In this document: positions 1-20,129 of the stretch, one piece after another
How the letters are laid out: the number at the start of each line of letters is the position of its first letter
How positions within the stretch are numbered: position 1 is the first letter of the stretch
Position numbers and translations under genes: made by a program
Notes under the pieces: model-generated
What the model was told of the DNA's origin: nothing
What the model saw: only the letters and a program-made list of their open reading frames with translations
Database searches by the model: none
NCBI GenBank assembly: GCA_040377305.1
Contig: JBEIPA010000005.1
Coordinates: 64,001-128,000 of the forward strand
DNA length: 64,000 bases
Direction: 5' to 3'
Source: Flavobacteriales bacterium
Lineage (GTDB): Bacteria; Bacteroidota; Bacteroidia; Palsa-965

Positions 1-841
1 TTTGTTCGCGCCCTAGACGCCATGTACACGAGGAATCAAGACCGTATGCTCCATGAGGAGAAAGTGCAAGGCTTATCCCGATGTTATTTTCAATGTTGTT
101 TCGTCCTGAGATATTCTCATATCCATTTGAAAAAATGAAATCGTTTCTTGATTGATAGCTGATGCGCTCGTACTGGTTGTAAATTTTACGGACCGAGTCA
201 AGCTCAATCTGAGCTCCATCTGTTTCCGCCTGATTTTTCAGCAGTTCATTTTTCAGATCTTGTTCAAACAATTCAATACGGTATTTAACCAACGCCTCCT
301 GCTCCTCAACAGAAGGCAGGTGTACAGCATCACTGAAAGTAAATTGCGGAATGATTGCAATTGCTCCCAGAGCAAAGAGTACAAGGGCAACAATACATTT
401 CAGGAAAATCCTGCGCCACTTCTCTTTATAGGCAGCTTTAATTTCAGCATGAAGGCTTTTGACAATGAATGGGACTCCCTTGTCAGTTGTGACCGCATAC
501 CGATCGATCAGCTCCGGAAAATTTCTCGCAACTTGGCTCGCAACAATGCGATGCCATACAGGGAACGCTAGTTTTCTTCCAGTCTCTTTTTCACGCTGCA
601 GAATGTAGTTGCGTTCAATGATCGGCCATTTGCGGACATAGTCGGGACTGAGTACCAGCACATAAAATTCCGACTTCTCAAGGCCTTCGTGAACTACTTC
701 CTCCACCGACTTTCCAATAGTCAATTTATCACCTACAAAATAGACATTCAGACCTTTAGCTGTTAGACCATTCGCAATTCCCACTGCAATATCGGCCTTG
801 TCTTCAATTGCGTAGGACATGAAAACGTCGTAAGGTCTCAT
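1..841 (-). CDS. TIR domain protein with transmembrane helix and C-terminal (probably extracytoplasmic) domain; truncated by window edge
   Basis: Not in the ORF track because no stop occurs before base 1. Manual translation from ATG at 841: MRPYDVFMSYAIEDKADIAVGIANGLTAKGLNVYFVGDKL...SPDYVRKWPIIERNYIL (TIR box 1 and WxxxE), then the hydrophobic stretch IFLKCIVALVLFALGAIAII, then >110 further residues. Close paralogue of 1382..1999. Confidence 0.85.
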   Translation of the reverse strand, partial: MRPYDVFMSYAIEDKADIAVGIANGLTAKGLNVYFVGDKLTIGKSVEEVVHEGLEKSEFYVLVLSPDYVRKWPIIERNYILQREKETGRKLAFPVWHRIVASQVARNFPELIDRYAVTTDKGVPFIVKSLHAEIKAAYKEKWRRIFLKCIVALVLFALGAIAIIPQFTFSDAVHLPSVEEQEALVKYRIELFEQDLKNELLKNQAETDGAQIELDSVRKIYNQYERISYQSRNDFIFSNGYENISGRNNIENNIGISLALSPHGAYGLDSSCTWRLGREQ

Positions 842-879
842 GAATGGAATTTGATAACAATCCGAAATTGAATACCTGA

Positions 880-1371
880 TTACTCCTTCAGATCAAATCG
901 CTTACTCACGTCTTCATAATTATTCCAGTCAAGATCCGGATTAGCAGCCTTCGCCGAAGAAGGTACTACCACCACTTTGCACTTGACGTTCACACCGTAG
1001 TAGGTATTAGGATCGCTACCCGATGAAGGGCCATCATACAACCAGCTAACCTCAACGTTTCCCGGCGTGTATCGAAATCCCATGTAGTAGTTATGAAGTG
1101 TTCCGTAAACAGTATATGGTACAGATGTCCATACATTAGACTGTGTGCTGTAATAAACCATAACACCCGCCGATTCCAGATTGCTCGCCGTGATTTCAGG
1201 AACGGAAAGATTAATATAGTGATGTGGCGTGGACCAATACCAGGATGTAACCGTAAACGTGTGCGATTTCACCTGCGTCGCGGGATCGACCTGAGCGTCT
1301 TCGCAATTGGTCAAAAAAAGACTGATCATGAAGAACAGCAGAGTAAAGGATGTAGTGTAGACTTTTTTCAT
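880..1371 (-). CDS. Putative lipoprotein, paralogue of 8140..8658
   Basis: ATG at 1371 gives MKKVYTTSFTLLFFMISLFLTNC (signal peptide + lipobox Cys) and avoids overlap with the upstream TIR gene. C-terminus ANPDLDWNNYEDVSK resembles ANPNIDWNSYEQVSK of 8140..8658. Confidence 0.8.
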   Translation of the reverse strand: MKKVYTTSFTLLFFMISLFLTNCEDAQVDPATQVKSHTFTVTSWYWSTPHHYINLSVPEITASNLESAGVMVYYSTQSNVWTSVPYTVYGTLHNYYMGFRYTPGNVEVSWLYDGPSSGSDPNTYYGVNVKCKVVVVPSSAKAANPDLDWNNYEDVSKRFDLKE

Positions 1372-1381
1372 TTTACTTAGT

Positions 1382-1999
1382 TTAATTATTGGGTGATAAG
1401 GGATGTGTATTTCGTATTGCCGGATCTCTTGGCGCTTCTTCAATCAGTGCAAAGTATCCAAACACAAGAAGGAGCAGCGCGACCACCATAAACAACAGAA
1501 TTTTACCGGTTGATGAGTTCGGCATTTTACGTTGTTCTATTTCCCTTCCTCCTTCCGTCACTTTATTTTTTTCACCTTCTTCGCTTTTTCTTTTATGAAT
1601 TGCTTTCTGCAAATGATCCGCTACCGCATCCAATCCCGTATCAGTAGAAGGAGCATAATGATCAATAAGTTCAGGAAAGTGAAGAGCGACATCGTCGTAT
1701 GAAATATTGTTCCAGACAGGGAATACCAACTTCTTACCTTCTTTCTTCTGACGGTGCAGAATATAATTGCGCTCTATTGCTGGCCACTTGCGCCGGTAGT
1801 TATGACTGACAATCAACACGCAGAAATGAGATTGATCCAGACCATTATTAACAGTATCCGAAATCAAATCACCCGAGGAAAGTTTGTCTCCAACGAAATA
1901 CACATTCAAGCCCGATTTTTTTAACCGCTCTGCTATTCCTGCAGCCGTCGGAAACTTGTCTTCAATTGCGTAAGAGATGAATACATCGTATTTTTTCAT
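1382..1999 (-). CDS. TIR domain protein with C-terminal transmembrane helix
   Basis: YDVFISYAIEDK, GLNVYF, KWPAIERNY, VFPVW; C-terminal ILLFMVVALLLLVFGYFALI. Confidence 0.9.
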   Translation of the reverse strand: MKKYDVFISYAIEDKFPTAAGIAERLKKSGLNVYFVGDKLSSGDLISDTVNNGLDQSHFCVLIVSHNYRRKWPAIERNYILHRQKKEGKKLVFPVWNNISYDDVALHFPELIDHYAPSTDTGLDAVADHLQKAIHKRKSEEGEKNKVTEGGREIEQRKMPNSSTGKILLFMVVALLLLVFGYFALIEEAPRDPAIRNTHPLSPNN

Positions 2000-2034
2000 A
2001 GCGAACTTTTAACCAAATGAGTGTCTTGATTTTA

Positions 2035-2565
2035 TCATGCTTCAGCATTACCGCCCAGAACAATTACACCCACACTTTGTGCGTCCTGACCTTCTTCCTG
2101 ATCACGATTAGGTGTGTGCTTATCCATTCGCGCTGGCACAGTTCCATCTGACTCTTTTGCAACCAGATCCAAAACTTTAGCAAGTACAGGATTCAAGCCT
2201 CTTCGTGACGATATCGCATCGCGATCTGATATTGCAGATTTATTTTGCTTCAGCATTTTCAGCGTCACATTGCAAAGCACAAGCAGAATCCTGTTATCAA
2301 TTTTCTTTTTGGACAGTAAAGTTCCCAGTTCTTTTGTCGCCCATTTTTTTGAGATGAACATAGGGCTGATTATCACTATGCCATATCGCGACAGTTTCAA
2401 TGCATTGGTGATAGAGGTTGTAACGGAAGTTTTTTTCTTCAATTCAGCATTCAGGTACCACACACGAAGTCCGCTCTTTTTCAGAGCCAGCACCAGCTCC
2501 TGAACAAATGCGCTATGATCTTCATAGGTGTGAGTAATGAAAACATCATAAAATTGTTGGCGCAT
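2035..2565 (-). CDS. Soluble TIR domain protein (TIR_2 / TcpC-BtpA-like)
   Basis: YDVFITHTYEDHSAFV..L..AL...GLRVWY, SRYGIVIISPMF..KKWATKEL. Confidence 0.9.
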   Translation of the reverse strand: MRQQFYDVFITHTYEDHSAFVQELVLALKKSGLRVWYLNAELKKKTSVTTSITNALKLSRYGIVIISPMFISKKWATKELGTLLSKKKIDNRILLVLCNVTLKMLKQNKSAISDRDAISSRRGLNPVLAKVLDLVAKESDGTVPARMDKHTPNRDQEEGQDAQSVGVIVLGGNAEA

Positions 2566-2621
2566 GAATGTTATCGGTCTTAGGATATTTTATCGATTTA
2601 CCGATAATGAGCAATACATTT

Positions 2622-3182
2622 TTAGATCTTCCCAAGGCGTTTTAGTTCCCAAAAACATTTTGCTGTTGCTGCAATATCTGCAGCAGCGTTGTGTGCCTGC
2701 GGAAAATCTTTTCCAAAAAGTTTGTAATGCAGTTCGGAAAGCTTTGGCCATTTATTTCCAGGAAGCGCACAAAACGAAGTCGTGCTGTGCATCGTGCAAA
2801 TTTTACTTTTTTCTGCTACCGCGTTTGGAATCTTATTTCGGATAAATTCAGCGCCAACAATTTTTTCATCGAAACTCATATTATGAGCAACGAGATACTC
2901 CGCCTCATGGATCAACGACTGAAATTGCTTGAGGACGCTCAAAAGGACTTTTCCTTCTTTCAGCGCCTTCTCGGTTGAGATTCCGTGAATCCTGGAAGCC
3001 GCCAGGGGAATTGAAAAACCATCAGGTTTTATAATATAATCACCCCCTGATATTTTGTTTCCTTGCTTGTCATAAGCCAAATAAGCTAACTGCACCATTC
3101 GTGGCCAGTTATCCACATCGGTTACAGGTGCTTTCCAGCTGGCAGGTAGTCCAGTTGTTTCTGTGTCAAAAAATAAATACAT
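2622..3182 (-). CDS. DEDDh 3'-5' exonuclease (DnaQ-like)
   Basis: ExoI FFDTETTG, ExoII AHNMSFD, ExoIII AHNAAADI. Confidence 0.92.
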   Translation of the reverse strand: MYLFFDTETTGLPASWKAPVTDVDNWPRMVQLAYLAYDKQGNKISGGDYIIKPDGFSIPLAASRIHGISTEKALKEGKVLLSVLKQFQSLIHEAEYLVAHNMSFDEKIVGAEFIRNKIPNAVAEKSKICTMHSTTSFCALPGNKWPKLSELHYKLFGKDFPQAHNAAADIAATAKCFWELKRLGKI

Positions 3183-3207
3183 AACGCTTCTTCGCCTTTG
3201 ATTACGT

Positions 3208-3296
3208 GACGAAATAAGCTAACGCGCTTTCCGGACGAAAAACAAGTTTCCGAAACGCCCAATAAGATTTCTGAATCCTGTGTTTTTCTTTCCCGA
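3208..3296 (-). promoter_or_regulatory. Putative LytTR-type direct-repeat promoter for the exonuclease-TIR operon
   Basis: Minus strand TCGGGAAA (3296-3289), TTCAGAAA (3275-3268), TTCGGAAA (3254-3247) at 21-bp period; 29-nt gap; then TTATTTCGTC (degenerate TAnnTTTG -7 box). Confidence 0.55.
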
Positions 3297-3301
3297 TCAA
3301 A

Positions 3302-4048
3302 TCAGATCATGGAAAATCTCCGATGTACTTCGTCCCGATAACTATCACTGGTAGGAACCTCTGCTTTTCCTATTAAAAGCATATTCCCTTTGATTGCAGT
3401 TACTTTGTCAATATTGACTGCGAACGAACGGTGCACGCGCATAAGAAGCGGGTGGTCGAATTTTTCCTGAAAAGCCTTCAGACTGTACGTTAAAGTAAAC
3501 TTCCGACTCATCGTGTGAATGTGGCAATATGATCCGCCCGCTTCAATCCAAAGAATATCATCCAGATTAATCCGGTAAAAAGTATCATCATCCTTTACAA
3601 GGATGCGATCCTTGAATGGAAAAATGGTTTCTGTAGTTTTCTCATTCTTTACCGGAAGAGCAATTTTCTTACTGCTCGCGTTATAAAACGCAATCTCAAT
3701 TGCTATCAGTAAATCCTGCGCTTTGAATGGCTTCAGCAAAAACGCTGCGGGATGCGTGTGCTTGGCACGCTCAATAGTCTTCTCATCGTGAAGGTCTGTG
3801 AGATAGATAATGGGAATAGAATAATTTGCGTTGATCCGTTCTGAGGTCTGTATCCCATCCATTTCTCCGGAAAGATGAATATCCATCAGGATCACATCCG
3901 GCTGCTTGTTCTTGATTTCTTCAAGCGCCGCCTCACCCGATGTCACTATCTTCTTTACAACATAACCGGCCGTTGTGAGTGTTTCAGCAACCGACTCGGC
4001 TATTATGACTTTATCTTCAACAATTAAAACTGAAACAGGTGCTATCAT
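3302..4048 (-). CDS. LytTR-family response regulator
   Basis: REC domain (VLIVED, PDVILMDIHL, FLLKPF) plus LytTR domain (ILWIEAGGSYC, RVHRSFAVN). Confidence 0.95.
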   Translation of the reverse strand: MIAPVSVLIVEDKVIIAESVAETLTTAGYVVKKIVTSGEAALEEIKNKQPDVILMDIHLSGEMDGIQTSERINANYSIPIIYLTDLHDEKTIERAKHTHPAAFLLKPFKAQDLLIAIEIAFYNASSKKIALPVKNEKTTETIFPFKDRILVKDDDTFYRINLDDILWIEAGGSYCHIHTMSRKFTLTYSLKAFQEKFDHPLLMRVHRSFAVNIDKVTAIKGNMLLIGKAEVPTSDSYRDEVHRRFSMI

Positions 4049-6300
4049 TTTACCTCTGGTATTTCCAATGTTACAATTGTGCCGCGCTCATCCGAATGCG
4101 TGAGTAATGTTGCTTTGAGCTCGCGCGAAAATAGCTGAATCAATCGCAACCCGAATGATCTGTTAAGCTCTGCTTTATTACCCGCAGGAATTCCGGTTCC
4201 GTTATCGGAGAAACGAAGCAGCTTGCCGGTGAACTCAATATGAAGTGTTGCATCGTCATTCTTCTTCAGAACATGCTTGAACCAGTTACTGATGACTTCA
4301 TTGCAAACGAAACCAAGACTCAGCGCTTTATCTGCATCCAACTCAATAGATGCAACGTCTTTGCTGATGTTCAGTTCTGCCGCGGCATAACCGTAAGACT
4401 GACAGAGATTATCAATCAATGCCTCAATGTAAGTACGCATGTTGACCTGCGATCCGACATGGTCGCCATAAAGTCCCTGATGAATCAACAACATCGCCGT
4501 TAATCGCTGATCAATCTCCTGCATAAGTTCTGCCATTGCCGGATCCTGGATACGCGATTGCTGAAGTTCCAGCAGGCTGGAAAGCACCTGCAGATTATTT
4601 TTAATACGGTGATGCAACTCACTCATCATCGTTTGCTTCTGCTCTATGATGGTTTGCTTTTGTTCAATAATCACCTTGCTTTGACGGAGTGCAAGACGAC
4701 GTGAACGGATAGCAACAAACAACAATGCTACTACCACAAGAAGCAATGCGGCTCCAACTACGAGCGAGTAAATCAATGTATGCTGCCGCTCAACAGTTGC
4801 TTCCTTCACCTTGTCTCGTTCATTCAGTAAAACGATTTCGTGTTCTTTGCTCTCACTGTCATACTTCACTTCCATTTCTGTAATTGCTTTCTGCTTTTCT
4901 TCATTTAATACGGAGTCCTTCATTGATATGAAAAGGTCCATGTACAGCAAAGCGGAATCTGACTGTCCCTCCGTCAGGAAAATATCTGTTGTAATCTTAT
5001 AGTTATCCAACAGATATTTTTTTGCGCCAATCTTTTCTAACCGGCTACGCGCAGCCTTGAGATGTTCCAATGCATCATGGTTCTTGCCCATCGCCTGATA
5101 TAGCCTGCTCAACTTGTTTAACGTAAGAGCAACTAGCTTGGGGTCATCTGCAATCGATTTTAACTCAAGCGCCTTCTTATAATATGCTTCCGCTTTGTCG
5201 AATTCCTTTTTGTGATAATATGCTTCGCCCAATAGGTCAACAGAACTAGCGATGAAGTCTGAATCACCTAATTCATTCTTAATAAGTAGTGAACGATTTA
5301 AATAACTGATAGCGGTATCGTAGTCTCCCAACAGAATATAAGCCTGCCCAAGATTCGTAAGGGATCCGGCAATCCCTCTTTTATTCCCAATTGAATCACG
5401 AAGATGCAATGAGCGTGTATGATATTCTATTGCCCTTCGCGGCTCCTCTACCTCACAATACAAATTGCCAATGCTATTATAACAGGACGCAAGTTCTTTT
5501 GCATATTGAATCTGCTCGAAAAATGGAGCAGCAAGTAACAGATGATGTAACGCACTATCGTAGGAACCTTGTTCCCGGAATACTATTCCAAGATTAAGAT
5601 TAAAGATTGCGAGATTTGTATCATCGTCAAGTCGCTCGGCAATTACAAGTGCTTTCTGATACGAATGGATACTGCGGAGATAGTCTTCGTTATCAGAATA
5701 AACCATCGCTATGTTGCTATAGCAAGCCGCCATCGCAGAGGAGTCATGAAGAGCTGTGTCGTACTTAATTTCCTCATTCAAGTATTTCAAAGCGTTTGCA
5801 GAATCGCGCTCGATCAGGTAGTAAATACCCAACTCCTGCAGAGCAAAAGCAATGTCCTTGTCGCTTCTGGCGTTTGTGCCGATCAGTAACGCTTCTTTCA
5901 TCGAAGCAACTGCAGAATCAGGTCGCTGTAGTTCGAGGTAACACTTTCCCGTTTTTATCAAGGCCCTTACCTGCTCATGAACAAGATTAGCTTTCTCCGC
6001 CTGATTAGCCGCATGAATGTAATAATAGAGCGCTGAATCAAAATTTGCTTGCGTGCTATAATAAACTCCCAATGCATTCAGCGCTCTGATCCTGTTATTG
6101 ACATCGCCTGATTCAGATGACACCGCTCTTACTTCCTGCACCCACGCTGCAGTGTCAGTTGTGCTATCCAGCACGGGCAGGATCGACTCTGCGGTTTGAT
6201 TGTTGCACGAAAAATAATTCAGGCTAACCAGCAGAAGGAATACAAAACCTCCAGCCGATTTCGCAATCGGAATGCATCTGGTTCGCAGATAGGCAGACAT
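4045..6300 (-). CDS. TPR-repeat membrane sensor histidine kinase (HisKA_2 type)
   Basis: N-terminal hydrophobic segment, many TPR repeats, TM helix, H-box ELHHRIKNNLQ, N-box NEVISN, DNGTG and SFGL; 4-nt overlap with the regulator. Confidence 0.93.
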   Translation of the reverse strand: MSAYLRTRCIPIAKSAGGFVFLLLVSLNYFSCNNQTAESILPVLDSTTDTAAWVQEVRAVSSESGDVNNRIRALNALGVYYSTQANFDSALYYYIHAANQAEKANLVHEQVRALIKTGKCYLELQRPDSAVASMKEALLIGTNARSDKDIAFALQELGIYYLIERDSANALKYLNEEIKYDTALHDSSAMAACYSNIAMVYSDNEDYLRSIHSYQKALVIAERLDDDTNLAIFNLNLGIVFREQGSYDSALHHLLLAAPFFEQIQYAKELASCYNSIGNLYCEVEEPRRAIEYHTRSLHLRDSIGNKRGIAGSLTNLGQAYILLGDYDTAISYLNRSLLIKNELGDSDFIASSVDLLGEAYYHKKEFDKAEAYYKKALELKSIADDPKLVALTLNKLSRLYQAMGKNHDALEHLKAARSRLEKIGAKKYLLDNYKITTDIFLTEGQSDSALLYMDLFISMKDSVLNEEKQKAITEMEVKYDSESKEHEIVLLNERDKVKEATVERQHTLIYSLVVGAALLLVVVALLFVAIRSRRLALRQSKVIIEQKQTIIEQKQTMMSELHHRIKNNLQVLSSLLELQQSRIQDPAMAELMQEIDQRLTAMLLIHQGLYGDHVGSQVNMRTYIEALIDNLCQSYGYAAAELNISKDVASIELDADKALSLGFVCNEVISNWFKHVLKKNDDATLHIEFTGKLLRFSDNGTGIPAGNKAELNRSFGLRLIQLFSRELKATLLTHSDERGTIVTLEIPEVK

Positions 6301-6379
6301 ACAATAAGCTTTGAGAAAACTGATTTACACACTTCTAAGGTAGATTAAATAATCATGACAATTTCCGCAATCTTTCATG

Positions 6380-6415
6380 AAAAAAACGGGACTTTGCATA
6401 CAGCGAAGTCCCGTT
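6380..6415 (-). terminator. Intrinsic terminator after 6431..6817
   Basis: Stem ACGGGACTT/AAGTCCCGT followed by a T-run on the minus strand. Confidence 0.75.
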
Positions 6416-6430
6416 GAATTCTACATCACA

Positions 6431-6817
6431 CTAGGGTGCAATCAGCGTGTCGATACGCACGACTTCAGAAGAAAACGTAAGGTTCACGTTTTTCGGAAGA
6501 TAGCCCGTTCTTGTGAAGTTCAGTACGTAAGTACCGGATTCAAAACCACCCATGCAATACTCGCCTGATGAATTTGTAGTCGTCTGATTCTGCACAACTC
6601 CACCTTGCAGCAGCTTCACCGTAACATTATTGATCGGTGTTCCGGTTACAGTTAATGCATGACCTCTCACAATGATTGGTTCTTCATCGCAATCCGGTGA
6701 AATCACACCGGTGAAACAGGTTGCACTCTTTGAACACTTTTCAGAAATAGAAGTGGTCGGGTGAAATGTTCCGAAAAGGAATACAATCACGCTTACGACC
6801 TTAATGATATTTGTCAT
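6431..6817 (-). CDS. Secreted carboxypeptidase-regulatory-like (prealbumin-fold) domain protein
   Basis: Signal peptide, then GTPINNVTVKL...TTTNSSGEY....GTYVLNFTRTGY pattern. Confidence 0.75.
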   Translation of the reverse strand: MTNIIKVVSVIVFLFGTFHPTTSISEKCSKSATCFTGVISPDCDEEPIIVRGHALTVTGTPINNVTVKLLQGGVVQNQTTTNSSGEYCMGGFESGTYVLNFTRTGYLPKNVNLTFSSEVVRIDTLIAP

Positions 6818-6845
6818 GTTGATTTAGTATTAAGGTTTGACATAC

Positions 6846-7060
6846 CCGGTTGGCCCGTGCGCACCATGCACACTGTCGGTTCCGGATTTTAAGCGGGACA
6901 TTTCTCCGTTCCTGTTGCGCAGACCAGCGATCAGCTTTATCGCTTTTTGCCTATCCCTGAGCAAAGAGTCTTTGCAACAGGAGCGGAGTGTATTTATCAG
7001 TTCAGTATCATGAAACCGGAACTTCGATTTATCCTTTCGGATCGGGTAGTCGCCCGTGCG
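6846..7060. ncRNA. Candidate structured RNA/leader in the divergent intergenic region
   Basis: 15-bp stem 6904-6918/6974-6988 enclosing two inner hairpins; outer helix GTTCCGG/CCGGAAC; ATCC-TTTC-GGAT hairpin. No family recognised. Confidence 0.3.
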
Positions 7061-7218
7061 ATTCAGTTCACTTTATCATTTCAACTGCACTGATGTTGTG
7101 ATCAGCAACACGGTAAATTTTTACATAAAGGATAACCGGCCGCGAAACTTTTCCCGGTAACGTCCGGCGATCTTCCGGCGATGAACTAGAATTTCCGGCG
7201 ATGTTGTACTTCCGGCTT

Positions 7219-7286
7219 TTAGGAAAGAAAAACGAGTGATTCGGAAAATAAATTCGGTTACGGCTTGCCCGAACCATTCATTTGTC
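7219..7286 (+). promoter_or_regulatory. Putative LytTR-type direct-repeat promoter
   Basis: TTAGGAAA (7219) and TTCGGAAA (7240) at 21-bp period; 29-nt gap; TTCATTTGTC (7277). Confidence 0.5.
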
Positions 7287-7300
7287 GGCGAAATCCGGTT

Positions 7301-8143
7301 ATGAAGTTCAGCAGGGACATATTGAAAAGACTGCTTTCTGAAATTCAGAATGCGATCTATATGGATGTAACCAGTGGAAATGGTGCTGCCGTAAATGCTG
7401 CCTTGGGTGCGAAATACAAAGAATATCGCAAAGTTCCCTATCCGATTACCAATCCGGAATTTGTTTATCGCACCGTCAAGGCAAAACTGAACGATAAGAA
7501 AAGAAAGGGTAAAGAACTTCCATTGCTCACCGGCAACTTTGAAATTTTAGTACATGCTCTGGGTTACAAAGGAATCCCTGACTTCATTAATGGAAAGCAT
7601 CCCGCTGTCAGCACAGATCTGAAGGGTTGTGAAGGTTTCTGGTATAGCTACGTACGTTGCAATTCAGGACAACCTTTTGTGTTGCGCGCTCCAGTGGAGA
7701 TCGTTGTGCGATATCGCGACGTTGAAATGGAATTGAGAGGAAGCCGAAGAACTTTCAAAGGTAAAATGAAGCTCGAAGGTGATTGCATCTTTTGCCTGCT
7801 GGAAAGTGGCGACACAAAAAACCTTCACTTGATATTTAAAACCGGTCTCGAATCAACACCTAATGTCTTACAAGGCGTTTTCTCAGGACTGTCAACTGCC
7901 AATGATCCAATCGCAGGTCGAGAAATATTGATACGTCAACCCGGTATGGATGATTTGAAGAAATTGACAAACGATCGCTTGTCCATTGACAAACTACTCT
8001 CGTCCGGAACAGAAGACGAGAAAATAATTGCACGTTATTTCAGTAACGTCGATGAAAATATTCTTAAAGCCGGGCGCAGCAGCAATTTTGAAATTACAGA
8101 TCTCATTAAACCAGAACAGAAACCTAAAACCAGAAAAAAATGA
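7301..8143 (+). CDS. Hypothetical protein: helical (possibly HTH-like) N-terminus plus beta-rich C-terminal domain
   Basis: ATG at 7301. LVHALGYKGIPDF segment, then GFWYSY-initiated alternating beta strands; 4-nt overlap with the next gene. Confidence 0.75.
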   Translation: MKFSRDILKRLLSEIQNAIYMDVTSGNGAAVNAALGAKYKEYRKVPYPITNPEFVYRTVKAKLNDKKRKGKELPLLTGNFEILVHALGYKGIPDFINGKHPAVSTDLKGCEGFWYSYVRCNSGQPFVLRAPVEIVVRYRDVEMELRGSRRTFKGKMKLEGDCIFCLLESGDTKNLHLIFKTGLESTPNVLQGVFSGLSTANDPIAGREILIRQPGMDDLKKLTNDRLSIDKLLSSGTEDEKIIARYFSNVDENILKAGRSSNFEITDLIKPEQKPKTRKK

Positions 8144-8658
8144 AAACAGCTAAAATTTACATCCTGCTTGTCACTATTGTTTCGCTTGTCACTGCCTGCA
8201 AAAAAGAAGGGCCTGCCGGTCCTGCCGGAAAAGATGGAAATGCGAATGTTATTTCATCAAACACGCTTACGCTGAATAATTGGATTACGGTTTACGATGA
8301 TGGCACAGAGTTTACGTACTCTTCGAATCTTACCTGGGGCGAGATCACACAAGAAGTGCGCGATGGTGGATTGCTCATTACATACCTGAAAGACAACACA
8401 ACATCAACGTGGTATGCTATGCCTTATTCATACGCAGGTGACGGTTATGGGTACACATTCAACTACGATTTCAATATCGGTACTGCGAATATCTATTATG
8501 AAGGTTACGACAATTCAGGATCGCCAGGAGCCAATGCGCTGAATGGACTCTTTACAATTCGTTTAGTTGCCGTTCCTCCTGCAATTCGTGAAGCGAATCC
8601 GAATATCGATTGGAACAGCTATGAACAGGTTAGTAAACTGATTACTGCACAGGAGTAA
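8140..8658 (+). CDS. Lipoprotein with short collagen-like linker
   Basis: LVTAC lipobox, GPAGPAGKDGNANV; paralogue of 880..1371. Confidence 0.85.
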   Translation: MKTAKIYILLVTIVSLVTACKKEGPAGPAGKDGNANVISSNTLTLNNWITVYDDGTEFTYSSNLTWGEITQEVRDGGLLITYLKDNTTSTWYAMPYSYAGDGYGYTFNYDFNIGTANIYYEGYDNSGSPGANALNGLFTIRLVAVPPAIREANPNIDWNSYEQVSKLITAQE

Positions 8659-8715
8659 TATTATTTATATCCAAAATACAATCCAACGCATCAGCCAGTT
8701 CTAATAGCTCAGTTC

Positions 8716-8943
8716 ATGGAATACAAAGCAGTTTCAATCGTCCCCGTTCAAGGTGAAAAAGAAGATGGGCGTCACGTCGCTCAGAATCTGGAAGACCTTC
8801 TGAAAAAGTATCACGCCGAAGGTTGGGAATATGTGAGAGTAGAAAGCCTGCAGGTATGGGTTAATCCCACTGGCGGATGCTTTGGTTTTGGACAAACGCC
8901 GGGTTACTACGCAGCGCGGCAAATGGTGATTTTCAAAAAATGA
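8716..8943 (+). CDS. DUF4177-like small protein
   Basis: MEYKAV...LEDLLKKYHAEGWEYVRVE...MVIFKK pattern. Confidence 0.7.
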   Translation: MEYKAVSIVPVQGEKEDGRHVAQNLEDLLKKYHAEGWEYVRVESLQVWVNPTGGCFGFGQTPGYYAARQMVIFKK

Positions 8944-9248
8944 AATTTCTGTTGACGATACCGATCCGGATGTACTGGAAGCTGATTCGTATTTCGCGCA
9001 GGCGACAGTGCATTTTCAAAGTTTCATGTTCGCAGCACGTTCACTCTACAGTAGTGAAAGACGGATTACTCTGCGGGATCAAAGCACTCGTATACAGAAT
9101 GCAAACATGCAGACCGGGTTATGAAATAATCTCACTGAAACAAGAGAACACATTGTTGCTTGTTCTGAAGAACGGAAATGTCCTGCAGGAGAAGGAAATA
9201 TCGGAATCACTTATAAGGCAACAATGTTTCTCCATCGACACGAATTAA
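8940..9248 (+). CDS. YidD-like (haemolytic-domain) protein
   Basis: ATG at 8940 overlapping the upstream stop; YWKLI..RRQCIFKVSCS...G...G......R...CRPG Cys pattern. Confidence 0.7.
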   Translation: MKFLLTIPIRMYWKLIRISRRRQCIFKVSCSQHVHSTVVKDGLLCGIKALVYRMQTCRPGYEIISLKQENTLLLVLKNGNVLQEKEISESLIRQQCFSIDTN

Positions 9249-9258
9249 ACTGTATCCA

Positions 9259-9621
9259 ATGAAAAAGAACATTCTGATTTTTGCAATTACACTGTCATCA
9301 CTTGTATTCATTTCCGCTACGGTATTAGACGGCAGTCCAACGGAACACGAAACGTATTGCCAGATCATCGGCACGCGTCAAATGTTCTCCACCAAACTGA
9401 CCATTACAGTTGACTACGGTGAGCCCCGAAAATGGTTTTCGGATCAGCGCATAAAAGATGAAACCGGAAAAATTCAGAAGTTCAACAGTATGATCGATGC
9501 GATGAACTACATGGCTGACCAGGGATGGACTTTCGTTTGCGCGTATCCGGTTACGCATGATAACTCGGATGTGTATCATTATACGTTTAAGAAGGTGGTG
9601 GTGGAGACGGAGGCGGAGTAG
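9259..9621 (+). CDS. Exported hypothetical protein
   Basis: Signal peptide; VDYG...FNSMIDAMNYMADQGWTFV motif. Confidence 0.8.
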   Translation: MKKNILIFAITLSSLVFISATVLDGSPTEHETYCQIIGTRQMFSTKLTITVDYGEPRKWFSDQRIKDETGKIQKFNSMIDAMNYMADQGWTFVCAYPVTHDNSDVYHYTFKKVVVETEAE

Positions 9622-9683
9622 GTTGTGCTCTTTATTATTCTCCTTGAAATCAAAAATTCATATTCAATCTAAAAGCTGAAAGT

Positions 9684-10385
9684 ATGTCAAGATGTACAGC
9701 ACCAGTTCATGGTCATCGCACAGCAAGCGGAGCGGCAAACTGTCCCGCATGCAGCGGCCAGTATGGCAGATATAATTCATACTCATCCTACCCATCATCA
9801 TATTCACCGCCTTCATACAGTTCAGGAAGCCGTGGTAACAGCAGCGGAAACTCCAGAAGTATGAAACCGCGTTGGTCTAAGGCAGGTTCAACACTTTTAT
9901 ACTCGCCTGCTGAAATAAGAACGCTTACACCAGTTCGTGAGAATGTTGAGAAGCGATCGTCCATCCCTGACCTACGCGATGTTTTTCTTTGCCACGCTTG
10001 GGATGATCGAAAAGGAGCTGCCAAAGAGTTGCATGATCTGCTTGAGTCCCGAGGTATCACGGTTTGGTTCAGCGAAAAGGATGTTTCGCTTGGTTCGTCA
10101 TTGCTTCGCGAAATCGATAAAGGGTTGGCAAAGTCTCGAGTAGGAATAGTATTGGTCACACCTTCGTTTCTAAGTCGCGTCATAGGAGAAGGCATAGCCG
10201 ACAAAGAGCTTTCAGCGCTATTAGCACGTGACTTACTCGTTCCTGTTATGCACAATACAACATTTGAAAAATTACGCGAGGTCAGCCCTCTCCTAGGCTC
10301 CAGAAGCGGCCTAAGCACACTGGAGGAATCAATGGCAGACGTTGCAGCCAAATTAGCGGAACTAGTATCAGTACAGTCTCAGTGA
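9684..10385 (+). CDS. TIR domain protein with Cys/His N-terminus and Ser/Tyr/Gly-rich linker
   Basis: RDVFLCHAWDDR, VWFSEKDV.LG..L.REIDKGLAKSRVGIVLVTP, DKELSALL. Confidence 0.92.
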   Translation: MSRCTAPVHGHRTASGAANCPACSGQYGRYNSYSSYPSSYSPPSYSSGSRGNSSGNSRSMKPRWSKAGSTLLYSPAEIRTLTPVRENVEKRSSIPDLRDVFLCHAWDDRKGAAKELHDLLESRGITVWFSEKDVSLGSSLLREIDKGLAKSRVGIVLVTPSFLSRVIGEGIADKELSALLARDLLVPVMHNTTFEKLREVSPLLGSRSGLSTLEESMADVAAKLAELVSVQSQ

Positions 10386-10394
10386 ATGGGACGC

Positions 10395-10430
10395 AAAGGT
10401 TCTATCCTCTGAAGGTTAAACCTTCGAAGG
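10395..10430. repeat. Intergenic 36-bp repeat, copy 1
   Basis: AAAGGTTCTATCCTCTGAAGGTTAAACCTTCGAAGG; 31/36 identical to 11020-11055. Confidence 0.8.
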
Positions 10431-10501
10431 AGCGACTTTTCGGACTTAGATTAGAACAATTACGAAGACATAAAGAAATATTTCTCTTCCCAATAAACGA
10501 C

Positions 10502-10879
10502 ATGACCATGCAATTGAAGCAATACATATTATTAGCGCTCCTAACATTCCTGATAATTTCATGTGAGTCAAAAAGTTCATTCGAAGAGCGTCGTGCTGCT
10601 GCCAAGATAATCCTCTCCTCCAAATGCGCCGTAGTTGTTGACGCGTCCACTGAGTTTATCAAAGATAAACGTCCGATTATTGGTGCACTGGTTGCAACCG
10701 TTGTTGAATCAAAATGCGATTGTATTACAGATTCTTTAGCTGTTCAGTTCGCCAATGAATACGACTTGCAGACAATTAAAGACATGGAGCACGAACCCAT
10801 CGAATCGCTTGCAGTAATATTAAACAAATGCATGGATAAGAATGACAAGGTGGTGGTCGACTGTGTGACAGAGTGGTAA
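10502..10879 (+). CDS. Cys-rich putative lipoprotein
   Basis: ATG at 10502 (or 10508), LIISC lipobox, KCDC motif. Confidence 0.7.
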   Translation: MTMQLKQYILLALLTFLIISCESKSSFEERRAAAKIILSSKCAVVVDASTEFIKDKRPIIGALVATVVESKCDCITDSLAVQFANEYDLQTIKDMEHEPIESLAVILNKCMDKNDKVVVDCVTEW

Positions 10880-10930
10880 AGTCGATCGATCCAACGCATT
10901 TTTGGGGCAAATTCAACCCAGTTTACAACG

Positions 10931-11001
10931 ATGAAATACAAAGCAGTTTCAATCGTCCCTGTTCACGGCGCAAAAAAGATTGTCGTCACATTGCACAAAA
11001 C
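10931..11001 (+). pseudogene. Frameshifted 5' remnant of a DUF4177-like paralogue
   Basis: MKYKAVSIVPVHG vs MEYKAVSIVPVQG (8716); after a 1-nt deletion reads DCRHIAQN vs DGRHVAQN; upstream ATCCAACGCAT also shared. Confidence 0.8.
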
Positions 11002-11019
11002 AACAAAGAGCTAATATAA

Positions 11020-11055
11020 AAAGGTTCCATCCTTTGAAGGTTAAGGCTTTGAAGG
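11020..11055. repeat. Intergenic 36-bp repeat, copy 2
   Basis: AAAGGTTCCATCCTTTGAAGGTTAAGGCTTTGAAGG. Confidence 0.8.
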
Positions 11056-11081
11056 GCTTTCTTAAATCATCGTCATTAAAG

Positions 11082-11170
11082 TTCACAAGGAACGAGACGC
11101 CGCTCAGAAAGTAAAACGCATAGTTCAGAAAGTAATTATGGAACCGCGCGTAAATGATATAATCTTCGTC
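11082..11170 (+). promoter_or_regulatory. Putative LytTR-type direct-repeat promoter
   Basis: TTCACAAG (11082), CTCAGAAA (11103), TTCAGAAA (11124) at 21-bp period, with a perfect 11-mer TCAGAAAGTAA twice; 29-nt gap; AATCTTCGTC (11161). Confidence 0.6.
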
Positions 11171-11190
11171 TGTAAACCAAATTTAAAATC

Positions 11191-11409
11191 ATGGAACGGT
11201 ACAGAAATTTATCAGGAGATTCGGGTGTCCACTCCTTCGAAATTGGCGTGGACTACATCACGGTCAAATTTTCAGGAACAGCGCGAACATACACTTATAG
11301 TTATAGAAAAGCAGGTTCCGCTCATGTCGAGGCAATGAAACTTCTGGCTCAAAACGGCAGTGGTCTCAATAGCTACATCAATCGAAATGTGAAGAATTCA
11401 TACGACTAA
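11191..11409 (+). CDS. Small conserved hypothetical protein (KTSC-like)
   Basis: Y.NLSGDSGV..FEIG.DYI.V.F...Y.Y...G...VE.MK.LA..G.GLNSYI pattern. Confidence 0.8.
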   Translation: MERYRNLSGDSGVHSFEIGVDYITVKFSGTARTYTYSYRKAGSAHVEAMKLLAQNGSGLNSYINRNVKNSYD

Positions 11410-11424
11410 TTACCTCCTCTTAAA

Positions 11425-11805
11425 ATGAGAGTCTACCTGACCATTTTTTTATTGACCATCACGTGTATTACGAAAGCGAATTTCTGGTCATCATACGAAT
11501 GCACGCTGAGATATGGAATAGACAATGGATGGTATGCGTCGACGGTTGATTATACAAATTATGGTAACGGTACATACGCTACGTATTCGCTTGCAGTTTA
11601 CGTCGAGTATAACCGGGTAACCGTTATTGACTTTGGAAATGGAGGTTCAGTGCACTCTGGAATCAACAATGAAGGCTACTACTATAGTGGTGGATATTTG
11701 AACTTTGAATACCAATATGGAACCATGAATATCGTTGCTGCAACTACGACAGTTACGGTTATGCAGGATGGATCGAGCAGGTATTATAAAATCCGGATAG
11801 AATGA
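11425..11805 (+). CDS. Exported Tyr/Gly-rich hypothetical protein
   Basis: Signal peptide, beta-rich 126-aa ORF. Confidence 0.7.
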   Translation: MRVYLTIFLLTITCITKANFWSSYECTLRYGIDNGWYASTVDYTNYGNGTYATYSLAVYVEYNRVTVIDFGNGGSVHSGINNEGYYYSGGYLNFEYQYGTMNIVAATTTVTVMQDGSSRYYKIRIE

Positions 11806-11870
11806 TTTGTGAAAAAAGACGGCTACAGCTAACAAGAAGTTAATTGGTTAACCTCTAATATAAAATACAA

Positions 11871-12191
11871 ATGAGCAAATGGGCAGATTACCTAATTTCT
11901 GGAGTGTGGTTCACTACCCAGAATAATTCCAAACGCATTTCGCATGTTATGTTACATGCCGATAGTGATAGTGGTTTTGAACACGGTATCAAGACATCAG
12001 AATCGGAAGTCATCAAGTTGCTGAAAAATAAAAAAAGTGTAATAACGATAACATGGAATTATCCAGGTTGGCAGAAAGGTGCTGCCGTAACCTATGAAAC
12101 TGTCCAGGGCCAGGAATACTTGCGGACAGTAGCTAACGCAACAACCAAAGACAATCTGGACAATTCCATTTCAATGCAGGCTATTGCCTGA
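11871..12191 (+). CDS. DUF3892-like protein
   Basis: KWADYLIS.V ... GA.V ... YLRT.AN.T.KDNL. Confidence 0.8.
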   Translation: MSKWADYLISGVWFTTQNNSKRISHVMLHADSDSGFEHGIKTSESEVIKLLKNKKSVITITWNYPGWQKGAAVTYETVQGQEYLRTVANATTKDNLDNSISMQAIA

Positions 12192-12240
12192 TCCTTTGAA
12201 AGGTTTGCTCTATTAAAATAAGTTCTAAAACTTAGATGAC

Positions 12241-12495
12241 TTGAAAGCCCTATTTGTTTCACTCTTTGGTCTTTTTGCAGTAACCGCTATTATCACTCAT
12301 ATCTGGACAACGATTATTGGTTTTGATGAAGGAGGATTCTGGGGTGGCGTTGCCACGCTTTTCCTCCCATTTCTTTCAGAAATTTATTGGACGTTCAAAA
12401 TGTATGGGGAGAACAATGTGTATGCGGTAACTGCATTAATTCATTTAATCCTGGCGATTCCATTTTCGATGGTTGATAGAAGCGAAAGACATTGA
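12241..12495 (+). CDS. Small multi-TM membrane protein
   Basis: Three hydrophobic segments; TTG start. Confidence 0.65.
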   Translation: MKALFVSLFGLFAVTAIITHIWTTIIGFDEGGFWGGVATLFLPFLSEIYWTFKMYGENNVYAVTALIHLILAIPFSMVDRSERH

Positions 12496-12584
12496 TCAAC
12501 TTCAATCGTATCTGTAAGGTTCCACCCTTACAATGCTACCTTGAAAAAGAACCCTAACGCCATGTCGAGGTTCTGATCATCATC

Positions 12585-12767
12585 GTGTTTACTTACGACT
12601 ACAAGTTGAAGGAATTTTATAAAGTGCCGTGGAGTGTTGCGCAAAAATTGATTGAACGCAGAGGCGGACTTGTTCAGAAAGAAGTGCTGAGGTGGAAGAC
12701 GATTGAAAAGTATCGGGAGGAGATTGAGGCGTTGCCGCGGCAGGAGGTGGTGGGGTTGTTTAGGTGA
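12585..12767 (+). CDS. Short hypothetical ORF, possibly a 3' gene remnant
   Basis: 60 aa, weak GTG start, G-rich tail like other operon-terminal genes here. Confidence 0.35.
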   Translation: MFTYDYKLKEFYKVPWSVAQKLIERRGGLVQKEVLRWKTIEKYREEIEALPRQEVVGLFR

Positions 12768-12965
12768 TTGCGCGTAACATCCACTGCAAGTGTGTCAGCT
12801 TGTAAATGGCAGGATGTCAGAACAGTCCTGACATTTATTGCTTAGAACAGAATTTTTGTCTGTGCAAAACATCATACCAGTTCAAATTCCAAGCATTGAG
12901 CAGAACCCATAAAAAACGGTACGATTATTCCGGAGTCCCGTGTGTTAAACTAAAAAACAAATACA

Positions 12966-13289
12966 ATGACTCCTACATTTCAAATTCTTACTGGCAACGA
13001 CCAGAAGATCTACTTCCGACTGGTAGCTGCTAACAATGAGATTATTCTCAGCAGCGAAGGGTACAACTCACGACAAGGTTGCCTCAATGGTATCGAGGCG
13101 GTACGGACGAACGCACCCTACAACACTCGTTATCAAACTAAAGTCGCGTCCAACTGGAAAAACTACTTTGTGCTACATGCGAGTAACGGCGAGATTATTG
13201 GCACAAGTCAACTATATGATTCTGCTCAGGGATGTGCGAAGGGAATTCTTGCAGTAATCGATGCTGCTCCTAAAGCTATTATTAAATAA
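12966..13289 (+). CDS. YegP / DUF1508 family protein
   Basis: Two repeats: YFRLVAANNEIILSSEGY...C.NGI and YFVLHASNGEIIGTSQLY...C.KGI. Confidence 0.92.
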   Translation: MTPTFQILTGNDQKIYFRLVAANNEIILSSEGYNSRQGCLNGIEAVRTNAPYNTRYQTKVASNWKNYFVLHASNGEIIGTSQLYDSAQGCAKGILAVIDAAPKAIIK

Positions 13290-13298
13290 CTTATTTCT

Positions 13299-13685
13299 AT
13301 GACACGCATTTTACCTCAAATTGAAGCACTACAGGAAATACCATTTTTTCACCGAACTTATGCTAAGGCTATACTTGGTCACATTGCCAACAAAATCGCT
13401 GAAACAGATGAGATCGAAGTGGGTACTTTTAGCAATGGCGAGCAGTCGGGCTCATTTATCGGATTTGATACTGATGACTTTGAGGATACAAGAATAGAAC
13501 TTCGCTACGATCATACGGAGTTCTTTCTAACCGTTGAAGATAATTACGATGATATGCGGTGCAGCACATTTGAATATAGAATACCTGAAGATTCAGAACT
13601 GAGCGGAATGATTCCAGCTGCTGTTGTTTCTCGATTATTTCAAGTTGCAAATTCTGATGAGTTTGAACTCGAGGAAGAAGAATAG
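13299..13685 (+). CDS. Acidic hypothetical protein
   Basis: 128-aa ORF 9 nt after the YegP-like gene. Confidence 0.65.
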   Translation: MTRILPQIEALQEIPFFHRTYAKAILGHIANKIAETDEIEVGTFSNGEQSGSFIGFDTDDFEDTRIELRYDHTEFFLTVEDNYDDMRCSTFEYRIPEDSELSGMIPAAVVSRLFQVANSDEFELEEEE

Positions 13686-13720
13686 AAAGTAAAGTTTGAA
13701 TCTCACCTACTTTCGCTGAT

Positions 13721-13750
13721 TATCCGTTTACAAACGTTTGTAAACGGATA
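13721..13750. repeat. Perfect 30-bp palindrome
   Basis: TATCCGTTTACAAACGTTTGTAAACGGATA equals its own reverse complement. Confidence 0.9.
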
Positions 13751-13900
13751 CGACCTCATGATGCAATGCTTTACTGACTAATATTTTTAGTTTTTTAAAA
13801 ATATCTATTCGATTTTAGACCAAAAAACAGGTTCGGTATAACGCTGATCAAAACCTATCCATAGTAGTTGTAATTTGTCACAGCTAATACTAACATCATC

Positions 13901-15784: not shown

Positions 15785-15795
15785 CATTTTAACCC

Positions 15796-16974
15796 ATGGA
15801 TTTAAGTCGTTATCTATCTGTACTTAGTGATTTGAACAACTACTCGCAAAATGAAGCATTTAAGCAACTGATATCTCAGTTAATTAATAGAATTGCTGAA
15901 AACAAACAACAAACAGAGATACAAGCCTCTATTGATGAAGTTCATGCGTTTACTCGTGCAAGTCCAGTGAATTACTATACCCCCTCCAGAATATACATTC
16001 TGAATAAGATTGGAGCCGCTCACTTTTATGGCGACGCTGCATTCAAATTTCTATCCGATATTCTAACAAAAAATTATTTCAATGCAAACAGCATTATTGA
16101 AGAATTGAATGCATACCTGCGTGATTTTAGTGATTGTCTAGAGCGGATCAGTCGCTCATATAATGTATTAACTGAACAAGGCTTTGTTCCCCACAAAATT
16201 CCAAATGACATATTCGAGCTAGGTGTGATTCTACCAACTGAGGTCACACATGATGAAATAATTCTCTTTGAAAAACAACTTCATCGATGGAACCTGACCG
16301 TCAAAATGTTCAATGAGTTGACATCTGGTGAGACTTCCAACCCTAAACTGATCAGTATAGAGAAGGGTTCTCCGCTTCAAGTGTTTATTGAAACATATGC
16401 ACCAACTGCAGCGTGCATTGCATTGGCAATAGAACGTATTACGGCCTTTTACAAAACAATTCTAGAAATCCGCCAGTTGCACACACAACTTGAGGAAAAA
16501 ACGGGAATGAAGTGGGAAGCAGTTAGTAAACATGAAAAGCAATTATACAACAATCTATTATTGGAGATAAAAAAATTAATTTGGGATAGGTTTGCAAACA
16601 AAAATGTTATTGCTGAAGAAAAACGTGCGAATGAATTAGATAATCACTTAACTAAAGAAATAAAATTCATTGCTGAAAGTATTAGCAAAGGTGTAGACGT
16701 AGAAATTAATGCTCCTCAGCCTGATCCAGAACCAATACAAAAATCAGAAAGCCCTTCGGAAGAAGATCGCAACCAATTTGAGAGAGAACTCGAGGCATAT
16801 CGCCAGAAATTATCTGAAATTTCTGAAATTCGAGATCATGGTAGCAGTCTAAAAAATCTGCCGCCAAGAAGTGAAGTTTTCTTGTCCATGCTAAGCGAAG
16901 AAAATTCCGAATTTGTTGACGGTGACGATAAGCCAGAAGAGAAAGATGAGGAGAAAAAACCTAAGAAGAAGTAG
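15796..16974 (+). CDS. Hypothetical helical protein downstream of the OLD nuclease
   Basis: 392-aa ORF 11 nt after the OLD stop; no recognisable catalytic motif; charged C-terminal tail. Confidence 0.8.
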   Translation: MDLSRYLSVLSDLNNYSQNEAFKQLISQLINRIAENKQQTEIQASIDEVHAFTRASPVNYYTPSRIYILNKIGAAHFYGDAAFKFLSDILTKNYFNANSIIEELNAYLRDFSDCLERISRSYNVLTEQGFVPHKIPNDIFELGVILPTEVTHDEIILFEKQLHRWNLTVKMFNELTSGETSNPKLISIEKGSPLQVFIETYAPTAACIALAIERITAFYKTILEIRQLHTQLEEKTGMKWEAVSKHEKQLYNNLLLEIKKLIWDRFANKNVIAEEKRANELDNHLTKEIKFIAESISKGVDVEINAPQPDPEPIQKSESPSEEDRNQFERELEAYRQKLSEISEIRDHGSSLKNLPPRSEVFLSMLSEENSEFVDGDDKPEEKDEEKKPKKK

Positions 16975-16985
16975 TAAACTTTAGT

Positions 16986-20126: not shown

Positions 20127-20129
20127 TTT

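Follow-up and report, generated by a model that had tools for sequence, protein, structure and literature searches.

In a 64,000-nucleotide stretch from a Flavobacteriales bacterium (GenBank assembly GCA_040377305.1, contig JBEIPA010000005.1, positions 64,001 to 128,000; hereafter the window), genes for a sensor kinase and a LytTR response regulator lie beside an operon encoding an exonuclease and TIR-domain proteins. The locus raises the question of which promoters this regulator controls and what the controlled genes are for. The first-pass annotation of the window had proposed that three promoters with octamers repeated at a 21-bp period form a LytTR regulon that includes the TIR operon and parts of an array of small open reading frames (ORFs). 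We followed this proposal through the genome (G000; 5.18 Mb, 99.99% complete, with the window on contig C6) and through its relatives, and the evidence consists of the sites themselves, their fixed geometry relative to the -33 and -7 promoter elements, their conservation, their co-occurrence with one clade of LytTR proteins and the genes downstream of them. Our sequence comparisons favor a two-component-activated, defence-biased regulon that is local in G000, and we put the probability of this reading at about 0.62.

Oriented repeats at a fixed distance from the core promoter

All three promoters carried their octamers where the first-pass annotation had placed them, at a 21-bp period and with the proximal copy followed by exactly 29 nt and the decamer that it quoted. 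P1, which faces the TIR operon, has direct repeats at 3247..3296 on the minus strand, inside the 119-bp gap after the LytTR gene, with the copies TCGGGAAA (3289-3296), TTCAGAAA (3268-3275) and TTCGGAAA (3247-3254); its predicted core promoter (3210..3241, minus) comprises a -33-like TTTT at 3238-3241 and the -7 box TTATTTCG at 3210-3217. P2 lies on the plus strand before the gene at 7301 (repeats 7219..7247, with TTAGGAAA at 7219 and TTCGGAAA at 7240) and has a predicted core promoter at 7253..7284, with a -33-like TTCG (7253-7256) and the -7 box TTCATTTG (7277-7284); its repeats are kept before the 7301 orthologs of the bacterium's own family. P3 precedes the gene at 11191 on the plus strand (repeats 11082..11131), with a poor TTCACAAG at 11082, CTCAGAAA at 11103 and TTCAGAAA at 11124, followed by a predicted core promoter at 11137..11168 with TATG at the -33 position and the -7 box AATCTTCG at 11161-11168. 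The outer third copies, at 3296 in P1 and 11082 in P3, are weak. A fourth site was found 273 nt left of the window (G000:C6:63727, minus strand), right after the gene for a TIR-membrane protein and ahead of a gene for a 102-aa exported protein.

The full architecture reads YYSRGAAA-N13-YYSRGAAA, 5 nt, a -33-like TTK, 20 nt and the -7 box, and the T-tract 5 nt past the proximal octamer had been overlooked in the first-pass annotation. We examined it in a training set of 57 promoters from relatives, none from G000, for which the octamers and an ORF downstream were the sole selection criteria, after removal of 6 of 63 candidates (two in the wrong orientation or without an ORF, three near-duplicates at L035 and one duplicate). 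The T-tract falls at +6 to +9, with T at +7 in 54/57, and the -7 box at +30 to +37, with T at +35 in 52/57, both in columns not used in the selection; the two elements are 20 nt apart. The Bacteroides consensus has a spacer of 19-21 nt between the -33 TTTG and the -7 box. At offset 29, 13 of 20 promoters have at most two mismatches to TAnnTTYG, and no other offset exceeds 5. The repeat is oriented and not palindromic, since its central base is a purine in 57/57 promoters in both copies and its final A (56/57) has no mirrored T (T in just 17/57 and 7/57).

The reading of the decamer as a degenerate Bacteroidota -7 box stood in part: the box of each of the four sites is one mismatch from TAnnTTYG, but the GTC ending is absent as a conserved feature in the relatives. 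An extracytoplasmic function (ECF)-type -10 box was ruled out for the same two reasons. TAnnTTTG is sense-enriched upstream of G000 genes (637 vs 250), as is TAnnTTCG (204 vs 94), and TAnnTT[T/C]G agrees with the Bacteroidota sigma-A -7 box described in a portion of PMC9723704.

Pairs of intergenic octamers with at most one mismatch each reached their genome-wide maximum at 21 bp, with 12 pairs, four of them from this locus; the 36 other spacings between 9 and 45 averaged 2.8 pairs (range 1-8). Among the relatives' gaps between LytTR and TIR genes, which were picked without the motif and thus come nearer to a blind test, 15 of 24 hold the 21-bp pair, and no other spacing between 9 and 40 is found in more than 3. 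A 77-column matrix built from the 57 relatives' promoters was also applied to 10.34 million positions of G000, in a scan that is not blind because its seed octamer came from the motif of the first-pass annotation. P2 ranked first (41.7 at 7219), P1 second (34.4 at 3275), the fourth site third (29.1) and P3 fifth (21.0 at 11103). Rank 4 (22.7) falls inside a coding gene and is the sole other site scoring at least 21, which rules out a genome-wide regulon in G000. A control with 12 column-shuffled matrices gave one hit of at least 21 and none of at least 29 over the genome; the motif exceeds chance and tops the genome ranking. The 21-bp peak, the relatives' gaps, the matrix ranks and the shuffles together rule out chance in AT-rich DNA.

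P3 is the least certain member of the regulon. It is the weakest of the four sites and scores lower than 56 of the 57 training promoters and lower than the coding-region hit, and homologs of the 11191 gene have a box in 1/3 cases in carrier genomes (score 27.3) and in 0/7 in other genomes. P3 might therefore be a chance match or a decayed remnant, with P1, P2 and the fourth site real and the regulon reading unchanged for those three. We regard this as rather unlikely: P3 is intergenic, has the right spacing to its -7 box, stands behind a terminator-like hairpin less than 8 kb from the regulator, and scores at a level reached only once across the 12 shuffled scans. In Cytophagales, a separate box precedes each of several small genes past the TIR gene, with up to four sites per 12 kb, and P3 and the fourth site match this pattern. 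The earlier inclusion of small-ORF genes in the regulon is supported by the separately boxed accessory genes of relatives, less so by the 11191 promoter itself.

The hairpin just 5' of P3 (11030-11056) corresponds to one copy of a 36-nt hairpin-forming repeat among the small ORFs (10395-10430 and 11020-11055, an 86% identical pair, with a partial copy at 12516-12538). The long inter-operon gap 5' of P2 contains several TTCCGGCGAT-like repeats and a 21-bp inverted repeat (7140-7215; 6904-6988), none of which scored as LytTR promoter sites. An Rfam scan of 1-21000 returned nothing at gathering level.

The kinase/LytTR pair as putative reader of the boxes

The LytTR response regulator (3302..4048, minus; Pfam PF00072 and PF04397) is the putative binder of the repeats. 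Its receiver residues Asp56 and Lys106 are invariant in 25/25 LytTR sequences, and orthologs 52-60% identical occur in 6 of 34 family genomes. The adjoining gene (4045..6300, minus), which overlaps it stop to start at 4045-4048, encodes a TPR-repeat sensor histidine kinase with an N-terminal signal or anchor, one transmembrane segment near residue 513 and an intact HisKA_2 H-box at 561. The first gene of the kinase operon encodes a small exported carboxypeptidase-regulatory-like protein (6431..6817, minus; PF13620) found in the bacterium's own family only. No box faces this operon: the operon-facing score stays at or below 12.1 across 27 related loci, and in the window no site faces it on that strand. 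Autoregulation of the kinase operon was rejected on this basis.

Whether the boxes belong to this regulator was judged mainly by where they occur. Within the family, the strict pattern is present in 6 of 8 carriers of the module vs 0 of 26 other genomes. Among 301 sampled genomes of one Cytophagales family, 27 have a member of the LytTR clade (24 above a score gap, at least 291 bits against the LytTR profile, and three by synteny); the strict pattern, which recovers just 22 of the 57 training promoters, occurs in 18 of these 27 vs 12 of the 274 others, and those 12 score at most 20.4 wherever they were scored. Clade loci outside the training set have a site of at least 21 in 7/8 cases, six of them directly after the LytTR gene. 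An unpublished genome (G012) is within these counts (1/6 LytTR orthologs, 1/8 carriers and 1/6 pattern-positive family genomes) and, by way of L024, which seems to be the same contig, also gave 2 of the 57 promoters used in training; the conclusions are independent of it. With the 21-bp pair in 15/24 gaps and the box following the LytTR clade, comparative genomics favors the original proposal of a LytTR regulon that includes the TIR operon.

The geometry also fits. Passages of PMC4847170 describe LytTR sites as repeats of 9-11 nt with a spacer of 11-13 nt and no shared consensus, and part of PMC6193735 locates the repeats 4-11 bp upstream of -35; here an 8-bp repeat with a 13-bp spacer ends 5 nt before the -33 element, an arrangement consistent with these sources and with portions of PMC4227749. 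We consider it highly probable, from sequence comparison, that the adjacent LytTR protein binds and activates the box promoters.

By the features tested, the predicted system works like an AgrA/YpdB-type LytTR regulon and not like the LytTR regulatory systems (LRS), Thoeris or Cap15. As passages of PMC4227749 and PMC4847170 describe for AgrC/AgrA, YpdA/YpdB and BtsS/BtsR, a receiver-LytTR protein stands beside a sensor kinase and direct repeats of about 21 bp precede the core promoter. The present system differs in its repeat sequence, its Bacteroidota -33/-7 promoter, its periplasmic TPR sensor with HisKA_2, its TIR and defence targets and the lack of a box before its own operon. LRS, as portrayed in part of PMC6193735, share the repeat period and the position 4-11 bp before the -35-equivalent, but they have their own membrane inhibitor and autoregulation, whereas here there is a kinase with a receiver domain and no autoregulatory box.

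Several observations pull against assigning the boxes to this regulator. The strict pattern is missing from 9 of the 27 clade genomes, the clade that unites the window's LytTR with the Cytophagales proteins has a FastTree support of 0.87 only, the 7-mer core TTCRGAA is quasi-palindromic, and the related genomes share kinship and are not independent, so that the counts overstate the case. G000 encodes 20 LytTR proteins, including two paralogs at 34-36% identity, and 4 of 12 sister LytTR loci outside the clade have a site of at least 21 facing a divergent gene; because of these similar sites, the distal boxes of relatives, including those before cas genes, could belong to a sister regulator. Another LytTR paralog might accordingly read some or all of the boxes, with the adjacent pair a passenger or a site-sharer. 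This is very improbable in our judgment, as all four intergenic sites of G000 lie within 11.4 kb around the adjacent LytTR gene and none near the other 19, and as the family genomes that have paralogs but lack the clade show the strict site in 0/26 cases. The sister kinase/LytTR pairs with boxes toward a divergent gene are at L187:6590, L190:1678, L191:1509 and L193:8209.

The protein encoded at 7301, or one sharing its helical N-terminal domain, could instead bind TTC-R-GAA as dimers, perhaps by way of a TIR-made ligand held in a Cap15-like barrel. It is conserved along with the module at 26 of 33 loci, its gene is preceded by a box in the bacterium's own family, and its barrel may bind a ligand. 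We give this idea even less credence than the paralog. The motif is strictly oriented; a box precedes 7301 genes in 8/32 cases overall and is mostly missing in Cytophagales; the five 7301 loci without a kinase pair have no site; and two genomes (G083 and G207) have triple repeats after the LytTR gene and yet no full-length 7301 homolog. Profile comparison also gave no support to 7301 as a helix-turn-helix (HTH) DNA binder (XRE 0.8%; HTH families in at most 2/119 members).

We infer every step by which the adjacent pair would act, from sensing to output, and hold the immune output less firmly than the rest. An outside cue would be sensed by the periplasmic TPR domain, and the kinase would phosphorylate Asp56 of the LytTR regulator. 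The oriented repeats directly 5' of the -33 element would then be occupied by two LytTR domains on the same face of the DNA. These would bring in sigma-A polymerase at weak promoters, each with a -7 box that departs from the consensus by a single base. The induced set would comprise TIR proteins (NAD-cleaving or adaptor), 7301 and small accessory genes. In relatives, it would add type I-B CRISPR-Cas, Gabija, Septu, Tiamat and TIR/STAND-like pairs, yet lipoproteins and a second kinase pair would belong to it as well.

A conserved accessory module

In the window, Pfam assigns to the minus strand a TPR/HisKA_2 kinase, a receiver-LytTR protein, a DEDDh exonuclease and three TIR_2 genes. We found 33 related loci by way of the 7301 family (377 representatives); 26 have the kinase and LytTR genes divergent from 7301, and in 24 the gene that directly follows LytTR encodes a TIR protein. 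The conserved core, as compared across these sequences, consists of the TPR kinase, the LytTR regulator, a TIR-transmembrane-periplasmic protein and the divergent, predicted barrel protein. The TIR-transmembrane-periplasmic protein occurs in only 8/34 other family genomes and 19/301 sampled Cytophagales-family genomes, which marks the module as accessory. The earlier view of an island is supported on the TIR regulon but was too narrow in scope: Bacteroidota share the module as a conserved accessory unit, and it is not a one-off.

The core TIR-transmembrane-periplasmic protein is the last product of the P1 operon within the window (1..841, minus; in full G000:C6:63732-64841, 369 aa). Its periplasmic domain was modelled at a predicted local distance difference test (pLDDT) score of 90; comparisons by Foldseek (none at E<=0.001), VIA-align (best Z 6.6) and Atlas gave no clear match to its fold, a result that does not imply a new fold. 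The first gene after P1 encodes the DEDDh exonuclease (2622..3182, minus), an accessory present in 1/33 related loci. It is followed by a TIR_2 protein (2035..2565, minus) with the catalytic-position Glu, which is almost invariant among the TIR proteins; its C-terminal tail does not reach the length of the motif-bearing tail in relatives. Next come a TIR_2 protein with one C-terminal transmembrane helix (1382..1999, minus) and a predicted lipoprotein (880..1371, minus), also behind P1, which has no Pfam or NCBIfam match and is related to the product of 8140-8658.

The core protein at 7301 (7301..8143, plus) combines a helical N-terminal domain with an 8-stranded beta-barrel in a model of pLDDT 95.6, and no PDB sequence matched it. 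The best natural match of the modelled barrel is the Cap15 receptor of cyclic-oligonucleotide-based anti-phage signalling systems (CBASS), with Z 10.3 and a root-mean-square deviation of 3.4 A over 102 residues, a likeness equalled by unrelated barrels. 7301 is 13% identical to Cap15, no cyclase was seen nearby, and the two N-terminal transmembrane helices of Cap15 have no counterpart, as 7301 shows no hydrophobic peak and its model has a soluble helical domain there. In G083 and G207, both the tail protein and the membrane protein carry a 7301-type N-terminal domain in place of TIR. This replacement suggests that the domain may serve as an adaptor like TIR and not as a DNA binder. Variant modules in which TIR is replaced flank a STAND-like gene at L102:3326-8618, L103:3129-8345 and L167:3693-7292. 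The gene behind 7301 encodes a predicted lipoprotein (8140..8658, plus), overlaps the 7301 stop and is likely co-transcribed from P2. The first gene after P3 encodes a 72-aa protein of no known family (11191..11409, plus).

Thoeris shares with this locus TIR_2 proteins that have the catalytic-position Glu, and its ThsB profile matches in part the three TIR proteins of the P1 operon. It differs in that the 22 window proteins of 1-19873 gave no ThsA hit and that the core TIR protein here is membrane-anchored, with an unassigned periplasmic domain. A fourth TIR gene in the window (9684-10385, plus) matches the ThsB profile PDLC00424 of PADLOC over its full length (E 2e-116), has no box of its own and has no ThsA nearby.

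Other features of the region were recorded alongside the module. A 45-nt stretch is duplicated at 89% identity (8716-8760 vs 10931-10975); it is the start of a 75-aa ORF, and the second copy is apparently a gene fragment. In Cytophagales loci L029-L052, the gap of 500-600 bp between the kinase gene and the 7301 homolog contains the recurring words GATCGATCG and ACAAAGGTG and, ahead of the 7301 start, TTCC repeats rich in T; it may hold a second regulatory element or an RNA. A tRNA-like 3' half lies at 20097-20140 (minus), past the end of rpoC and at the edge of a low-GC stretch, with no ARAGORN call and a weak Rfam tRNA-clan hit (E 0.35); it may be the remnant of an integration site.

Distal boxes in relatives and the probable purpose of the regulon

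We next consider the distal boxes, that is, strict-pattern sites away from the module in carrier genomes, which were taken regardless of the genes downstream. The count leaves aside the sites at L162 and L174, which lie at contig ends, three within long open frames (L109, L111, L148) and the module-local sites. PADLOC-named systems lie within three genes of 8 of the 18 readable boxes, in five genomes. Boxes stand before cas6-cas5-cas3 in G137, before three cas8b operons in G083, one of which has a short cas8b frame, and before a cas8b operon in G207, and further before GajA-GajB (Gabija) in G137, PtuA-PtuB (Septu) in G062 and TmtA (Tiamat) in G008. One other distal box leads to a candidate PDC-M22A system and another to MazG with a 5-hydroxymethyldeoxyuridine (5-hmdU) kinase helical-domain gene. 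Part of 10.64898/2025.12.14.694197 gives about ten defence systems per genome; set against 2,331 promoter-bearing starts in G000, this suggests that the baseline is low.

Local targets include HSDR_N, PLD, HNH and DUF3892 proteins as well as, at some loci, TIR/STAND-like pairs. In G023 and G020, the end motif of the first TIR protein matches the N-terminus of the next gene's product, of 864-870 aa, with a degenerate P-loop and HEAT-like repeats. Scores of 61 and 65 (p=0.001 each, 1000 shuffles) were obtained for TIR tail and partner N-terminus in L023 and L066; the corresponding values were p=0.007 in L103 and p=0.08 in L102. The STAND signals of the large partner are weak (nSTAND5 E 0.048 and nSTAND3 E 0.11 in 1/4; HEAT_2 in 3/4), and it has no PDB sequence match. 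The layout resembles the matched motifs of effector/NLR pairs with bacterial amyloid signalling sequences (BASS), which according to passages of 10.1101/2020.01.06.895854 include TIR_2 effectors. Here, in contrast, the motifs are predicted, the partner is weakly STAND-like (E 0.05-0.1), and the pair is optional, missing in G000 and placed under a two-component promoter. No MoxR ATPase or vWA genes, as in the MoxR-vWA iSTAND ternary system (PMC7159879), were recognised in the locus gene tables, which were not scanned specifically for them.

The defence bias has its own counterweights. Of the five cas promoters, three nearly duplicate one another, and collapsing them brings the defence count to 6/16. 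None of the other 10 of the 18 distal boxes leads to a named defence system; their targets are lipoproteins, small membrane proteins or unknowns. At three loci (L179, L181, L182) a box stands ahead of a second kinase pair, labelled PAS-type by inspection. G000 lacks the STAND-like partner, its TIR tail gives p>=0.45 against four partner N-termini, and no box precedes the defence genes at 13901-19873. A blastp search of G000 for the cas, Septu and Tiamat proteins that follow boxes elsewhere returned no homologs, and GajA gave one weak hit. With the partner missing, no box-linked defence homologs and 13901-19873 unboxed, the regulon is local in this genome.

These findings could also be accommodated if the LytTR pair activated the boxes as part of a general envelope or surface-stress response, with the TIR proteins as adaptors and the defence operons captured through clustering in variable regions. 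The 10/18 non-defence targets, the second kinase pair, the exported proteins of the core and the unboxed defence genes of G000 all suit such a response. On the other side, 8/18 distal boxes lead to four unrelated anti-phage kinds in five genomes, the core is rich in TIR, and relatives have amyloid-type TIR/STAND-like pairs. We judge the stress response unlikely, and defence is probably the main purpose of the LytTR regulon.

At L179 (2265-5098), L181 and L182, a TIR gene is followed by the second box and kinase/regulator pair, an order that suggests a signalling cascade. The unboxed defence genes of the window comprise a DUF2290 and helicase pair (16986-19873, minus; PADLOC profile matches of E 8.5e-17 and 2.1e-120) and, in low-GC DNA, an OLD/AriA-like ATPase gene followed by a gene for a 392-aa unknown protein (13901-16974, plus); a perfect 30-bp palindrome (13721-13750) lies 5' of the ATPase gene.

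Searches of open-access text found no description of a LytTR/TIR module or of a LytTR defence regulon in Bacteroidota, and the word LytTR is absent from the main text of PMC7159879 and PMC8195603. Passages of 10.64898/2025.12.14.694197 describe a systematic view of the timing of anti-phage systems as lacking and name mainly local HTH/WYL and global regulators. The island and global defence regulators treated there (WYL/HTH, LexA, CRP) and response-regulator control of cas operons are alike in that one regulator serves several defence genes; here, a dedicated accessory kinase/LytTR pair would have its own box before several unrelated systems at separate loci.

A tentative extension, which we find possible but less likely than its opposite, is that the pair acts as an outside-danger master switch of Bacteroidota immunity, in which one periplasmic signal (phage, predator or neighbour lysis) would induce all box-wired systems. 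If so, a TIR-membrane receptor of Toll-like type and amyloid pairs of NLR type would be induced together with those of CRISPR-Cas, Gabija, Septu and Tiamat that a given genome has placed behind the box, and the box could be used as a tag for new defence genes among the unnamed targets. It already nominates candidate families, namely the TIR-transmembrane-periplasmic protein, 7301 and the 102-aa, ~85-aa and ~66-aa proteins. The module has cultured carriers in Ohtaekwangia koreensis DSM 25262 (G062, with a box before Septu), O. kribbensis (G061), Chryseolinea and Dawidia. Should the defence link fail, the LytTR motif and its regulon would still be new for Bacteroidota and well supported; should it hold, an extracellular sensor with one box before unrelated immune systems would offer a direct handle on primed immunity.

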